Below, piece after piece: positions 7,453 to 44,920 of a DNA stretch of 64,000 nucleotides. The first letter of the stretch is position 1; the number at the start of each line of letters is the position of its first letter. The DNA is taken from IMG/VR virus record IMGVR_UViG_3300020046_004224, one strand, 5' to 3'. The notes beneath the pieces are model-generated. The model was not told the origin of the DNA, did not search any database, and worked only from the letters and a program-made list of their open reading frames with translations. This DNA is from a virus. Lineage: Duplodnaviria; Caudoviricetes. Position numbers and translations under genes: made by a program.

Positions 7453-8694
7453 GTGATGAGAAAATCATGGCCTAAAACATTGGAAGATGTTAAAGTATTG
7501 CTACCCGATTATATAGATATTAAGGATGAAACCTATCAAGGATTTCATAAATCTGCAACATTTATTGATAAGGATTATAATACAGAATTTATAAGAACTG
7601 TTAGATATGTAGTGGTGTATAAATCTGGCTGCAACGAAAGACAAAAGAACCATCGCCAAGATCAAAAATTATATTATTCAACCGAATATATACAGGACAC
7701 ATGTAACAGTGTTCGTTCTAGAAAAGAATTACAAGATAAATTTCCGACAATATTCAATTATATTAAAAATAATGATATACCATTCAACTTGTATTGCTCC
7801 CATTTTATTAAAAGCAATTCATCCAGGGGCGAAGAAATAACCAAATTAATAGCACAAAAATTACTACATCCACATCCATTTATCGAAAATTGTCGAGATG
7901 CTATTCCTTGTTATAGGGCAGAACTGGATATATATTTTCCAACATTGAAAATAGCGTTTGAATATAATGGGTGGTATTTTCATAAAAAGGAACATACCAT
8001 GAATAAAGATACCGTAAAGAAAATCAAGTGTGCCGAAAATGGTATTCTGCTACTGGTTATAAATGAATCCCGAGAGGGTATTGAACATACTAAGGATATA
8101 ATAGTTTATATAAAACAGTGGTTCATTCAAAACATTGATAAAATAAACAATTATTGTAATATATTATATCACCCATTAGACATTAATTCTTTAGATATTT
8201 CTATCGAAGATGTTTATAAACATTTAACCTCTCTGGACGATATTAAATCTTCTATAAAAGAGTGTTCAAGTCTTACCGAATTTAAGGTGAAACACAAAAA
8301 TAGCTGGAACATTTTACGCTATAATGATTTATTATACTTGTTAAATGATCTTCCTATTATCAGAGATTATAATAAATATACGGATGAGGAATTTATCCAA
8401 AAAGCAACTACAGAATTTACGTCGTATGCCGATTTTATCAGATCAAAACTTTTTAAAAAGCTTATCAATAATCAAAACAGAAGAAAAATATTGGATACTA
8501 TAAGAGATATATTCCCTAAATTTACCCATAACAAATACCATTGGTCCGCATTTTCCGATTTTGAATTAATAAATTTTATTGCAAAGAAATTCTCTTCTTA
8601 TAAAGAATTTTCCAAAAACAAGCCTCTTTATAAGAAATGTCATAAGAGAGGTTTAGTTAAAACTATTAAAATTAATTTTAGTAGTTTTCTCTAA
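7453..8694 (+). CDS. putative homing endonuclease (PD-(D/E)XK/Vsr-like with repeated helical modules)
   Basis: ELDIYFP.LKIAFEYNG.YFH...D..K...C...GI.L. Confidence 0.75.
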   Translation: MMRKSWPKTLEDVKVLLPDYIDIKDETYQGFHKSATFIDKDYNTEFIRTVRYVVVYKSGCNERQKNHRQDQKLYYSTEYIQDTCNSVRSRKELQDKFPTIFNYIKNNDIPFNLYCSHFIKSNSSRGEEITKLIAQKLLHPHPFIENCRDAIPCYRAELDIYFPTLKIAFEYNGWYFHKKEHTMNKDTVKKIKCAENGILLLVINESREGIEHTKDIIVYIKQWFIQNIDKINNYCNILYHPLDINSLDISIEDVYKHLTSLDDIKSSIKECSSLTEFKVKHKNSWNILRYNDLLYLLNDLPIIRDYNKYTDEEFIQKATTEFTSYADFIRSKLFKKLINNQNRRKILDTIRDIFPKFTHNKYHWSAFSDFELINFIAKKFSSYKEFSKNKPLYKKCHKRGLVKTIKINFSSFL

Positions 8695-10589: not shown

Positions 10590-10805
10590 CTAAAATCTAC
10601 GAACAATTCTGCCTTTTGTATAATCTGTCGGAGACATTTCTAGTAATACCTTATCGCCAACTTCTGGCTTGATTCTATTCTTTGTCATCTTCCCTGATAG
10701 ATATGCCAAAACTTCGGCATCGACCTTTTCCAATGTAACTTTAAAAAATCCATTTGGAAGAATTTTTGTTACTAATGCCTTAACTTCGACACATGCTGTT
10801 TTCAT
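10590..10805 (-). CDS. infA: translation initiation factor IF-1
   Basis: LPN..F.V.L......LAYLSGKM..NRI....GDKV..EMSP.D.TKGRI..R. Confidence 0.95.
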   Translation of the reverse strand: MKTACVEVKALVTKILPNGFFKVTLEKVDAEVLAYLSGKMTKNRIKPEVGDKVLLEMSPTDYTKGRIVRRF

Positions 10806-12545: not shown

Positions 12546-12621
12546 TGGCGAAGTGTACTGGTAATGCTCCAGCTATTTCTAACTTGACAGGTTAGCGACT
12601 CTACTTTTTGTCCTACACTCC
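12546..12621 (-). tRNA. tRNA-Asp(GTC)
   Basis: CTAAC-CTGTCAA-GTTAG, G73-CCA. Confidence 0.88.
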
Positions 12622-14367: not shown

Positions 14368-14454
14368 TGGCAGAAACGGAGGGATTCAAACTCTAGACAC
14401 CTTGCGGTGTACTTGTTTTCCAAACAAGCTACTCAGTCAACTAGTTTACCTTCC
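14368..14454 (-). tRNA. tRNA-Ser(GGA)
   Basis: CTTGT-TTGGAAA-ACAAG, long variable arm, G73-CCA. Confidence 0.8.
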
Positions 14455-14464
14455 TTTTAAAATT

Positions 14465-14552
14465 TGGTGGGACAACCTAGAGTTGAACTAGTTGCCGCCG
14501 CCGCACTTATTAATGGCAATAGATTTACAGTCTACCGTGCGGGGATTATCCC
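14465..14552 (-). tRNA. tRNA-Tyr(GTA) with no canonical D arm
   Basis: GGGATAA/TTGTCCC-ACCA, GTAGA-CTGTAAA-TCTAT, only 10 nt between acceptor and anticodon stems. Confidence 0.75.
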
Positions 14553-14584: not shown

Positions 14585-15142
14585 TCAACCATAATAGTAA
14601 TCTTTCCATCTATCTCCTAAAATATCATATAAATTTTTCAGATCAGATTTTAAAATCTTATTAGTGTGTACTAGTCTATGACAGTTTGGACATAATAAAG
14701 TTAAATTTGTGTGGTTGTGCGGGTCGGGTATTTTTCGACCGTTGATGTGGTGAATGTCGCACGTTGATTCATTCCATGAACAAATCGAACATCCTATGTT
14801 TAATCTTTTTAAGATTTTAGAGACTGTTCTCTTGGAGAATTCTAGTAAAGATGTCGCTGTATCGGCTTTAAATTTATTTTTCGTTCCTCCACCAACCCTT
14901 TTCGATCTTTCGTCTGTTGATAACAGATTGTTATATTTCTTGCGAACAACGTTTTTATAATCCCCTCTTTCGTGCTTTAGGCTAATAGCATCTGCTATCT
15001 TTTTATTGTGTTCCTCCGAATGAACAGGTCTTTTTCTATTACTCGCCTTCGCTGCGCACGATAAATTACAAAATCTTTTATATGATTTATCCCAATTTGT
15101 TTTTGGAATAAATTCTAGACCACATTCTTCACATATTTTCAT
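14585..15142 (-). CDS. HNH homing endonuclease
   Basis: C..C...DIHHI......N...NL.LLCPNCH..VH. Confidence 0.88.
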   Translation of the reverse strand: MKICEECGLEFIPKTNWDKSYKRFCNLSCAAKASNRKRPVHSEEHNKKIADAISLKHERGDYKNVVRKKYNNLLSTDERSKRVGGGTKNKFKADTATSLLEFSKRTVSKILKRLNIGCSICSWNESTCDIHHINGRKIPDPHNHTNLTLLCPNCHRLVHTNKILKSDLKNLYDILGDRWKDYYYG

Positions 15143-18639: not shown

Positions 18640-19578
18640 TTATCTGTAGAGATAATCTGGTAGATTGAAATGTTCTTTAACTTTATTCGCAGCGTCTATC
18701 TCAGAAGAAAATCTCAAATAGACGATCCCCTTCTTATCTTTCTTCAACGAAAATATCCATTCATCTCTCTTCGAATCATACGAAACATATTTGTATTTTG
18801 ATTTTGGGATATAAACTGTTTTGATTTTTTTATTGATTGCTTTATTCTGTCTAGAAAATGGTGAAATATTTTTACTGTCAATATTATAATCTTTACACCA
18901 TTTTTTAATAGTATTTCCAGTCTTTAACCCAAAATTCTTTGCCACACATTCCATTGATTTAGTAGTCAATAATAAAATCAATTCCTCTTTGGATGGACGG
19001 ACAGCTTTACGTCTACGCTCTCCATCACATGCGATACACTTACCTCTTTTATTATTTTTACAAATAACATTATCACACTTTTCACATCGAGGCAGAGTTT
19101 TCTTATGCCTTTTTCCTGCATAAGTCTCTGTCTGTGAATGACAGTTGGGGCACAAGAATGATAAATTGGATATTGTGTTATCGTCTGATATTCCGTTTTT
19201 ATGTTCCAGTTGTAGAGTGAGTGATTTATTATTCCATTCTGGAAGAATCCCACATTCATCACATATATATGGTACTAAATTAAATCTTAAAACGTATATC
19301 TTTACTTGATTTCTTGATATATATAACTTATTATCTATAATATCTCTAAACTTAGCTTCCGTCATCGTTCGAGTCAAAATAGATGATTTCTCTCTATTAA
19401 GAAAGTGGGAATGATCTACATTCAGAGCTTTCATTCGTTGTTTACATGTAATAAAATTATTACCTTTATTTTGTAATCCGAATGTTCGCAACAATTCCGA
19501 CATCGTTTTTGAATTTTTGACTCTTGTGATGAACTCATCATCAGGTATTGACCATATTATACTAGTTCTTTTTCTCAT
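18640..19578 (-). CDS. HNH homing endonuclease with HTH and AP2-like C-terminus
   Basis: LQLEHKNG...DN..SNL.FLCPNCHSQT; SKYKYVSY......W. Confidence 0.88.
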   Translation of the reverse strand: MRKRTSIIWSIPDDEFITRVKNSKTMSELLRTFGLQNKGNNFITCKQRMKALNVDHSHFLNREKSSILTRTMTEAKFRDIIDNKLYISRNQVKIYVLRFNLVPYICDECGILPEWNNKSLTLQLEHKNGISDDNTISNLSFLCPNCHSQTETYAGKRHKKTLPRCEKCDNVICKNNKRGKCIACDGERRRKAVRPSKEELILLLTTKSMECVAKNFGLKTGNTIKKWCKDYNIDSKNISPFSRQNKAINKKIKTVYIPKSKYKYVSYDSKRDEWIFSLKKDKKGIVYLRFSSEIDAANKVKEHFNLPDYLYR

Positions 19579-42939: not shown

Positions 42940-43039
42940 CTATTTTATTTATTCTTTCTATTAGATTTCTCAATAGAATAAGAATCTTTTCATAATTGAA
43001 TTCGCATTACCTTGTTTTTATCATAAATAGTTGTATATC

Positions 43040-44920
43040 ATGGCGACTAAAAAACGAGCTAGGAACACACGGTCAGTAAAATCTAAATTAAAAGAAATTT
43101 CTCTTGATGAAATGGAATCGGATTTTCCAACAACCTCTAAGGAGGTCCAATCAAAAGGTGTCGGTTTTAGACTAGATGTTAAAGTCAATCACCAATTAAC
43201 TGATAAACAAAAGGACATACTAAAGAGGATGACCGACTATAAGACACGAATGGTACTAATCGATGGTCTTTGGGGCACAAGTAAAGCACAACCATTAGAT
43301 TCAAAAATACTAACACCATCAGGATGGACAACGATGGGGTCTATATCTGTCGGTGATTTTGTGATTGGTTCTGATGGAAATCCTACGCAAGTATTAGGCG
43401 TTTTCCCACAAGGAGAAAAAGAAATATTTAAAGTGACCTTTTCGGATGACAGTTCTACAGAATGTTGTCTGGATCACTTATGGTTAACACAGACCGAGTA
43501 TGAAAGAAATAAACAGAAACGAGCAAGGAATGGCGGAAATCCCATATACACCAAAACACCAGCACCACCACAGGTTCGCACATTAAAGGAGATACAGGAA
43601 AGTATTCTAGTGAGCAAGGACCATTTAAATCACTCTATACCAATAACACAACCAGTTAATTTTGAACCAGTTCAACATTATATAGACCCATATATTCTCG
43701 GGGTTCTTCTAGGTGACGGATGCCTACGTAATCAAGTGTCATTTACAACCATCGACTCGGAGATACATGAGAAAGTGCGTGCGTTATTACCGGAGAAATT
43801 ATCATTGGTACATAGAATAGAAAATATAACATATGCAATAGTGTATAAAAAAGGACATAAATCTCCTATAAAAGAAGAACTCAGGAGATTAAAATTGTTG
43901 AATCATTTGTCATTTGAGAAATTCATTCCAGACGAATATAAATTCGATTCTACAGAAAATAGAATAAAACTTCTTCATGGTTTGATGGATACTGATGGAA
44001 CCACTGATGGAACATACACCAGTTTTTGTACAACATCTGATAAATTACGGGATGATGTTAAATTTATTGTTCAATCGTTGGGGGGAACGTCATCACATAA
44101 GACGCATAGACAAAATACATATACATATAAAGGAGAGAAAAAATTAGGAAGAGTATCATATATAGTAAGCATCAAACTCCCTAATAATATTTGTCCATTT
44201 ATGTTAGAGCGGAAGAGAATTAAACTAATCCCTAGAACAAAATACTTTCCTATTAGGTATTTTAAAAAGATCGAAAGTGTAGGATATAAACATGCACAAT
44301 GTATATTGGTGGATGCACCTAATCACTTATATTTAACAGATGATTGCATCGTCACACATAACACATTTATTTCCGTTTTATCCGCCTTGACTCTAATGAG
44401 TACTGGATCAATTAATAAAATATATTATGTGCGCTCTCCTGTAGAATCTTCGGATACTGCAAAAATTGGAACACTTCCTGGTGATTTGGCCGAAAAGACT
44501 GGCGCATATATGGCAGTGATGGAAGAAAAACTTGCTGAATTTTTGCCATACAATCAAGTAAATCGCCTTATACAAGACCAATATGTAGAATTTCTTCCAC
44601 CAGGATTTATGCGTGGAAGAAGTCTCGATAATTCTGTTCTTATCTGTGATGAAGCATCTAATTTCTCATGGAAAGATATGCTTTTAATATCCTCCCGTTT
44701 AGGAGTCAATAGTAGAATGTTCGTTATCGGTGATTCTTTCCAAAATGATATTGGAAACAAATCAGGATTTGAAAGATTCTTCAATTTATTCCAAAACGAT
44801 GAAGAAAGCAAAACCAACGGTATTCATACATTTACCATGAAAAATAAAGAAGATATTCTTCGTAGCGGATTTATCCGATTTGTCATGGAAAAGGCGGGCG
44901 TTCTTACTTTCGGAAGATAA
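43040..44920 (+). CDS. phoH: PhoH-like ATPase with intein
   Basis: G.WGTSK|T, R..VES....IG.LPG...EK, FMRGRSL......DEA.N, SRLG..S....GD..Q.D. Confidence 0.9.
   Translation: MATKKRARNTRSVKSKLKEISLDEMESDFPTTSKEVQSKGVGFRLDVKVNHQLTDKQKDILKRMTDYKTRMVLIDGLWGTSKAQPLDSKILTPSGWTTMGSISVGDFVIGSDGNPTQVLGVFPQGEKEIFKVTFSDDSSTECCLDHLWLTQTEYERNKQKRARNGGNPIYTKTPAPPQVRTLKEIQESILVSKDHLNHSIPITQPVNFEPVQHYIDPYILGVLLGDGCLRNQVSFTTIDSEIHEKVRALLPEKLSLVHRIENITYAIVYKKGHKSPIKEELRRLKLLNHLSFEKFIPDEYKFDSTENRIKLLHGLMDTDGTTDGTYTSFCTTSDKLRDDVKFIVQSLGGTSSHKTHRQNTYTYKGEKKLGRVSYIVSIKLPNNICPFMLERKRIKLIPRTKYFPIRYFKKIESVGYKHAQCILVDAPNHLYLTDDCIVTHNTFISVLSALTLMSTGSINKIYYVRSPVESSDTAKIGTLPGDLAEKTGAYMAVMEEKLAEFLPYNQVNRLIQDQYVEFLPPGFMRGRSLDNSVLICDEASNFSWKDMLLISSRLGVNSRMFVIGDSFQNDIGNKSGFERFFNLFQNDEESKTNGIHTFTMKNKEDILRSGFIRFVMEKAGVLTFGR
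43286..44362 (+). mobile_element. intein with LAGLIDADG endonuclease (Ala1, class 3-type)
   Basis: AQPLDSKILTP...HLW...LGVLLGDG...LHGLMDTDG...AQCILVD...VTHN/T. Confidence 0.9.

Follow-up and report, generated by a model that had tools for sequence, protein, structure and literature searches.

Where is the D arm of a transfer RNA (tRNA) whose gene leaves no room for one? This question is raised by a minus-strand element at positions 14552-14465 of IMG/VR record IMGVR_UViG_3300020046_004224, of which a stretch of 64,000 nucleotides (nt), hereafter the window, was analysed. The element was found to be an 88-nt gene for tyrosine tRNA (tRNA-Tyr) with a GUA anticodon, an encoded ACCA end and no D hairpin. 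Read from 14552 to 14465, a first parse gives an acceptor stem GGGAUAA/UUGUCCC followed by ACCA, a stretch of 10 nt, an anticodon stem GUAGA/UCUAU enclosing the loop CUGUAAA, a 27-nt "variable" stretch behind the anticodon arm, and a T arm with the loop UUCAACU. A sequence-only reading of this DNA had described a D-armless tRNA-Tyr with only a short stretch between the acceptor and anticodon stems, which this parse confirms. It had also pointed to the complementarity of CCGCAC (14542-14537) with GUGCGG (14506-14501) and of UGCC (14518-14515) with GGCA (14496-14493); both are exact, and the smaller stem covaries in homologues. Its proposal that the variable region supplies the missing D stem, giving a rewired and pseudoknotted L-shape, is supported by covariation in both helices, from which we infer the L-shape itself. 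We conclude, with a probability of roughly 0.8, that the phage has in this gene its own elongator tRNA-Tyr, with an ordinary decoding role on a core that is not a cloverleaf.

For this sequence alone, we estimate the chance of a 6-nt Watson-Crick match between the 10-nt and the 27-nt stretches at about 0.03. The CCGCAC/GUGCGG pairing (helix A) goes beyond chance because it is conserved, with compensatory change, in 70 homologues. One related Logan contig (L003), reached by a protein search with the neighbouring ATPase (63% identity), has an uncalled tRNA-cluster gene of like build, in which CCUAUC/GAUAGG stands in place of CCGCAC/GUGCGG, a difference of three compensatory pairs, and UGCC/GGCA is unchanged. 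Three pattern scans of IMG/VR, with search patterns anchored on the tRNA-Tyr anticodon arm, together with a Logan contig yielded 70 distinct homologous sequences of 88-92 nt. Helix A is intact in all 70 and occurs in 21 distinct sequence versions. In alignment A1, which comprises 65 family sequences and is the basis of the covariation figures given here, five of its six pairs change on both sides; the covariation check suggested in the sequence-only reading was thus borne out. Several versions of helix A occur on identical acceptor stems, four behind GGGGGCU and five behind GGAGCCU, which indicates that the changes arose repeatedly. The pairing was also examined in a non-circular manner, using every complete, unique match (n=79) of a pattern that extends over the anticodon arm and no further than the first part of the variable region: 72 of the 79 exhibit a perfect helix A of 6 base pairs (bp) in the expected place, and the remaining 7 are plainly not tRNAs.

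Over the whole structure, 15 covarying pairs were found across the 65 sequences of A1, including two anticodon-stem pairs with changes on both sides. Of the helix cells, 99.7% are paired; shuffling lowers this to 84%, with 0 of 500 shuffles as high as the real alignment, and sliding the partners lowers it to 32-64%. The covariance model of the family, R1, scores family members at 76-112 bits, six members outside its seed at 77-103 bits, and ordinary tRNAs at 33 bits or less; the window sequence, which is within the seed, has the lowest family score (76.1 bits).

A mutual-information scan revealed a pair that had not been assumed, between position 8 and the base that immediately precedes the 3' acceptor strand (8-81 in the alignment). 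It is standard in 70 of 70 members (GC in 57, AU in 8, UG in 4 and GU in 1; U8-G77 in the window), and its covariation implies an acceptor stem of 8 bp, a T stem of 4 bp and an unpaired linker of only CC. The family supports every one of the 8 acceptor pairs, and 7 show changes on both sides. The linker is followed by an uninterrupted 12-nt 5' strand in which every base is paired, in the 6-bp helix A, in G17-U35 (always G-U or A-U across the family) and in the 5-bp anticodon stem. With only 9 nt between the 8-bp acceptor stem and the anticodon stem, a D hairpin is impossible, and the anticodon arm has a regular 5-bp stem, a 7-nt loop, U33 and a purine at 37. The parts of the gene are as follows.

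14465..14552, minus strand: whole gene, 88-nt tRNA-Tyr(GUA) with encoded CCA and no D hairpin (from sequence and the R1 score)
14545..14552, minus strand: acceptor stem 5' strand, nt 1-8, GGGAUAAU; G1 pairs with C84, and the strand pairs with 14469-14476
14543..14544, minus strand: linker CC, 2 nt, in the place of cloverleaf positions 8-9 (A1 columns 9-10, mostly pyrimidines)
14537..14542, minus strand: helix A 5' strand CCGCAC, predicted to take the role of the D-stem 3' strand; continues directly into the anticodon stem
14531..14536, minus strand: anticodon stem 5' strand including G17, GGUAGA; stem pairs 19-33 and 20-32 covary
14524..14530, minus strand: anticodon loop CUGUAAA, anticodon GUA at 14526-14528, invariant in all members
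14518..14523, minus strand: anticodon stem 3' strand with U35, UCUAUU (from the family alignment)
14515..14517, minus strand: helix C 5' strand GCC, base of the class II variable arm; pairs with 14494-14496
14507..14514, minus strand: linker L1, AUUAAUAA, A/U-rich, 6-10 nt across the family; the A/U richness is partly imposed by one search pattern
14501..14506, minus strand: helix A 3' strand GUGCGG, inside the variable-arm loop (from family covariation)
14498..14500, minus strand: CGG triplet 3' of helix A, proposed stand-in for G18-G19 in T-loop docking; its last G is invariant
14494..14496, minus strand: helix C 3' strand GGC, which crosses helix A and so makes the predicted pseudoknot (from family covariation)
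14477..14491, minus strand: T arm, 4-bp stem CUAG/CUAG and loop UUCAACU; the stem has 4 nt in the family, with position 81 counted in the acceptor stem
14465..14476, minus strand: acceptor stem 3' strand (14469-14476), discriminator A (14468) and CCA (14465-14467); ACCA is encoded in 69 of 70 members

Where helix A meets the anticodon stem there are tandem G-U wobbles, G17-U35 and G18-U34 (A1 columns 17-18 with 34-35), which are kept in 56 and 61 of the 65 sequences, respectively. They could act as a hinge or as a recognition site.

The second helix, GCC/GGC (helix C), lies in the variable region. Its 3' strand GGC, which was never imposed by a search pattern, pairs in 70 of 70 members, and in the window gene both CCGCAC/GUGCGG and GCC/GGC stand in register with the 69 other members. 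The strands follow one another in the order A5', anticodon arm, C5', A3', C3', and the two helices therefore cross. A pseudoknot formed by helices A and C is thus the predicted fold and is supported by the family comparison. Canonical phage tRNA-Tyr genes caught by the same pattern possess a GCC-N4-GGC variable hairpin at this place, which identifies helix C as the old class II variable arm; the loop of this arm has grown from about 4 to about 18 nt and provides the 3' strand of helix A. Behind helix A stands an NGG triplet. Its last G never varies, nor does the C at T-loop position 3 (70/70), and its middle base combines with T-loop position 2 as G/U 63 times and as A/G 7 times. This covariation is suggestive of an elbow contact like that of G18-G19.

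With regard to function, the tRNA sets of these phages exhibit a gap that the family would fill. At 95 loci with a family member, ARAGORN called 1327 tRNAs, among which the 19 other amino acids are represented 41-117 times each and tyrosine twice, and no call overlaps any family member. The near-complete T4-like genomes G001 (343 kilobases (kb), 99% complete) and G002 (316 kb, 91%), both with a gp23 capsid gene, have tRNAs for 19 amino acids and are missing only tyrosine; in both, the family gene lies directly upstream of tRNA-Asp. Bacterial tRNA-Tyr is identified by GUA, A73 and G1-C72, and this set is present in the window gene and invariant in the 65 aligned members. The long class II variable arm keeps its stem GCC/GGC, with the loop tied into helix A. 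As no class Ib synthetase (PF00579), and thus no tyrosyl-tRNA synthetase (TyrRS), was found in five phage records, with all 14 control genomes scoring, charging would fall to the host TyrRS.

Two further observations concern other tRNAs of these clusters. The only two ARAGORN tRNA-Tyr calls in the 95 loci, L167:4399-4486 (minus strand) and L186:10753-10841 (plus strand), have a Ser/Leu-like class II body with GUA and U73 and lie beside a family member in the cluster; they may represent a switched identity. At the edge of the tRNA cluster of G001, a T4-like jumbo phage with the rewired tRNA-Tyr, ARAGORN called a tRNA with a CUA anticodon, of the amber suppressor type (L341:160-234).

The family escapes the standard gene finders. 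The window gene is absent from the 17 tRNA calls of ARAGORN in the window, and the Rfam tRNA model RF00005 (29-bit gathering threshold) has no match at the gene even at E<=10; at E<=0.01 the same model also misses the homologues in G001, G002 and G004. ARAGORN in mitochondrial mode recovers only 1 of 65 family members.

A divergent member was detected, by R1 only, in the cultured phage crAss001 (MH675552, 4141-4238; 25.3 bits, E 1e-5), where it occupies an unannotated gap between tRNA-Lys and tRNA-Phe. It has a 7/5 acceptor branch and a CUCC/GGAG helix C. The crAss001 annotation of bases 1-50,000, which hold a 23-gene tRNA cluster, lists no tRNA-Tyr. In 31 Kehishuvirus records, whose Bacteroides hosts are cultured, the gene recurs with 93-100% conservation and is unannotated. 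A blastn comparison of two main-family members with 50,697 phage records gave no main-family match. In a pattern scan of bacterial and archaeal genomes, the matches listed (at least 120) were all unrelated sequence, with no member among them.

These observations can be combined into the following model. Helix A, G17-U35 and the anticodon stem would form a continuous helix of 12 layers (6 bp, one pair and 5 bp), in which helix A would occupy the place of the D stem and of the core tertiary layers. By layer counting, it would stand in for a 4-bp D stem plus two tertiary layers of the core, thereby preserving the length of the arm. The NGG triplet after helix A would dock on the T loop in the manner of G18-G19, and the L-shape and the distance from anticodon to CCA would be kept. 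The usual enzymes would excise the RNA from the tRNA operon, and the host TyrRS, relying on GUA, A73, G1-C72 and the long variable arm, would charge it with tyrosine for the reading of UAU and UAC during infection.

Several points weigh against this model. The single-sequence fold is not unusually stable (the minimum-free-energy fold of the 88 nt, which contains helix A but omits UGCC/GGCA, has a z-score of -1.27) and proves nothing alone. The invariance of the anticodon arm among the homologues is partly due to the construction of the search patterns, and the covariation between NGG and the T loop may reflect one evolutionary event. The support for helix C consists of four variant sequences from about three lineages, and its 5' strand is fixed in two of the three patterns. 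The C-terminal domain of bacterial TyrRS recognises the long variable arm, and as this arm has been remodelled, charging by TyrRS is not assured. The transcription, processing, modification and aminoacylation of the product are predicted from sequence comparison. Finally, for the window phage the decoding role was deduced from a 64-kb window, and a second, canonical tRNA-Tyr elsewhere in its genome is possible.

Among the alternatives, the one that survives best leaves the RNA and the fold as they are and supposes that the rewired core is kept as an escape. It would hide the phage tRNA-Tyr from a host nuclease directed at tRNA-Tyr, or from a modifying enzyme, that reads the D arm or elbow, and the host TyrRS, EF-Tu and ribosome would still accept it. 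In a variant of this idea, the nuclease would be encoded by the phage and would clear the host tRNA-Tyr. The sequence-only reading had suggested such resistance, with retron PtuAB as its example. Escape would provide a selective reason for the design and would therefore add to the decoder model without replacing it, but we consider it rather unlikely. The odd design is confined to tyrosine among otherwise ordinary tRNA sets and is found in at least two distant phage groups, the T4-like phages and Crassvirales. Moreover, PtuAB of retron Eco7 targets tRNA-Tyr, and a phage tRNA-Tyr can rescue infection (PMC11555353). The rescue in that study, however, came from the T5 tRNA-Tyr driven by a strong promoter of the phage, and neither a cleavage site nor a D-arm determinant was met with when the text of the paper was searched by term (PMC11555353). 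No linked nuclease or defence gene was found here, all 70 members have a canonical anticodon loop, so that loop-reading enzymes would not be evaded, and neutral drift inside a class II tRNA explains the data equally well. If the escape idea were true, the family would represent a new functional tRNA fold together with a new principle of counter-defence, in which the fold is changed instead of the anticodon loop.

A second alternative, which we regard as improbable, is that only the nested part of the structure is real. Helix A would then lengthen the anticodon arm into a three-way junction, with UGCC/GGCA unpaired and without a pseudoknot. This would agree with the omission of helix C from the minimum-free-energy fold and with the uniformity of helix C in the main family, where it does not change on both sides and where two of the three search patterns imposed its 5' strand. 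The third pattern left this stretch free. Among the 70 members, GCC/GGC is found in 67 (one of them GCC/GGU), ACC/GGU in 2 and GGCC/GGCC, which has one extra compensated pair, in 1. The variants from the free pattern are all compensated (ACC/GGU twice, GGCC/GGCC once); compensatory variants were found in L216/L217, L218 and the divergent crAss001 member, whose CUCC/GGAG lies in the same two places. Together with the pairing of the unimposed GGC strand in 70 of 70 members and the variable hairpin of canonical phage tRNA-Tyr at this position, these variants argue for helix C as a real element of the fold, and hence for the pseudoknotted decoder over the nested-only structure.

It is similarly improbable that the RNA is a mimic that does not decode but, as a decoy or sponge, draws off TyrRS, a nuclease or a modification enzyme. 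The failure of every tRNA finder to recognise the gene would fit such a role. On the other hand, the anticodon loop is intact and invariant, A73 and CCA are present, and the gene fills exactly the single gap in otherwise complete tRNA sets; a decoy would need neither the preserved geometry between anticodon and acceptor end nor 12 stacked layers and an 8/4 branch. The notion of a decayed tRNA-Tyr pseudogene with a deleted D arm, to which the missing arm and the failure of both ARAGORN and Rfam might point, can be dismissed, as it is contradicted by the covariation, with 70 distinct intact homologues showing compensatory changes in every helix, by identical copies in independent metagenomes, and by the status of the gene as the sole Tyr gene in near-complete genomes. 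The ideas of a pseudogene, an intron and a permuted gene were all set aside, as the helices covary inside one contiguous 88-nt unit.

The preferred reading, a decoding tRNA-Tyr with a pseudoknotted core, can be placed among known RNAs. The gene shares with the canonical class II tRNA-Tyr(GUA) of bacteria and phages the CUGUAAA loop, G1-C72, A73, the encoded CCA and a GCC/GGC stem beside the anticodon stem. It differs in having no D hairpin, in a variable loop that provides one strand of a 6-bp helix, and in an acceptor/T branch of 8/4 instead of 7/5. An 8/4 branch is also found in the (8/4) tRNAs, which work in Escherichia coli translation (Mukai et al. 2017, PMC5389517). These (8/4) tRNAs, allo-tRNAs and tRNA-Sec-like RNAs resemble the rewired gene in the 12-bp acceptor branch split 8/4, the long variable arm, the 6-bp length of both the D-type helix and the anticodon helix, and, for the (8/4) tRNAs, their occurrence in phage tRNA clusters (PMC5389517). 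In contrast, the (8/4) tRNAs are cloverleaves that keep a D stem-loop with a long stem and a tetraloop, and are mostly of serine identity with G73 or U73 (PMC5389517), whereas in the rewired gene the D hairpin has been opened, the partner strand stands behind the anticodon arm, and the identity is that of tyrosine, with A73.

The D-armless mitochondrial tRNAs, such as metazoan tRNA-Ser(AGY) and those of nematodes, likewise lack a D hairpin between the acceptor and anticodon stems, but they are shrunken, lack a long variable arm and carry a short unpaired loop in place of the D arm (PMC7609411). The rewired gene, in contrast, has a full size of 88 nt, a helix rebuilt through a pseudoknot and a canonical T loop, and belongs to phages of bacteria. 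Other RNAs mimic the shape of tRNA with a connectivity that is not that of a cloverleaf, namely 3' ends of the turnip yellow mosaic virus (TYMV) type and the tRNA-like domain of transfer-messenger RNA. The TYMV pseudoknot builds the acceptor stem and not a D stem, and is part of a genome end; the transfer-messenger RNA domain has neither a D stem nor an anticodon arm. Neither is an elongator tRNA.

The sequence-only reading had called the absence of a D arm unusual outside mitochondria. In agreement with this, no phage or bacterial tRNA without a D hairpin, pseudoknotted or not, was found in full-text searches, in the (8/4) tRNA paper or in reviews on non-canonical tRNAs and on tRNA identity. 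The class is a tRNA but not a cloverleaf, and a published description of it was not found.

To our knowledge, every elongator tRNA outside organelles is assumed to be a cloverleaf. The present class of phage tyrosine tRNAs is predicted to keep the L-shape by other wiring, with a strand of the D stem moved behind the anticodon arm, a pseudoknot and an 8/4 acceptor branch. If its members are charged and used, then TyrRS, RNase P, EF-Tu and the ribosome tolerate a pseudoknotted topology. The "missing Tyr" of these tRNA clusters would be an annotation artefact, and in large phages, gut phages of the crAss001 type among them, tRNA finders would systematically undercount tRNA-Tyr. The class would also offer a natural scaffold for the engineering of orthogonal tRNAs.

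The window itself has a GC content of 34% and belongs to an uncultured, T4-like large phage, as judged from a gp44-type clamp-loader lid, PhoH and a phage lysozyme domain. The same phage is represented on metagenome contigs of 51-204 kb from the Joint Genome Institute (JGI), and identical copies of the 88-nt gene are found on two JGI metagenome contigs, L001 and L002. Kinship with Lak megaphages was considered since a 1-kb query matched only Lak phages, at 68-75% and over a different stretch; it was dropped in view of the 34% GC and of a TAG reading that is mostly unneeded. An exact 26-mer and a peptide pattern from the neighbouring ATPase had no match in IMG/VR. The tRNA-His has an ordinary G-1:C73, not of the alphaproteobacterial type, and so gives no clue to the host.

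The tRNA cluster lies on the minus strand between 12 and 27 kb of the window and comprises 17 ARAGORN genes plus a few extra Rfam matches. The tRNA-Tyr gene is flanked by an HNH endonuclease open reading frame (ORF; 14585-15142) on one side and by a tRNA-Ser-like gene on the other. The latter, tRNA-Ser(GGA)-like (14371-14455, minus strand), lies 12 nt downstream, scores 21.7 bits with Rfam (below 29) and has no ARAGORN call; its acceptor and T stems contain mismatches, and it is either decaying or another atypical tRNA. A 76-nt tRNA-Asp(GUC)-like gene (12546-12621, minus strand) was missed by ARAGORN and by Rfam (E<=1). Its acceptor stem is good, G73 and CCA are present, and it possesses an anticodon arm and a T stem of 5 bp; the T loop reads AGCAUUA, and the D loop is without GG. 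In the sister strain L001, an ordinary tRNA-Asp(GTC) occupies the same slot (10648-10722).

The tRNA cluster contains or adjoins three ORFs for HNH-type endonucleases, and the PhoH gene of the window contains a LAGLIDADG-like insert, possibly an intein; the ORFs listed for these features are 7453-8694 (plus strand), 14585-15142 (minus), 18640-19578 (minus) and 43031-44920 (plus). A short ORF inside the tRNA cluster matches only residues 142-196 of the Gp23 capsid profile, both in G004 (C1:69563-69727) and in the window phage (L002:3060-3320). As this fragment occurs in two different T4-like phages, each with a full gp23 elsewhere, it is a conserved feature and not debris.
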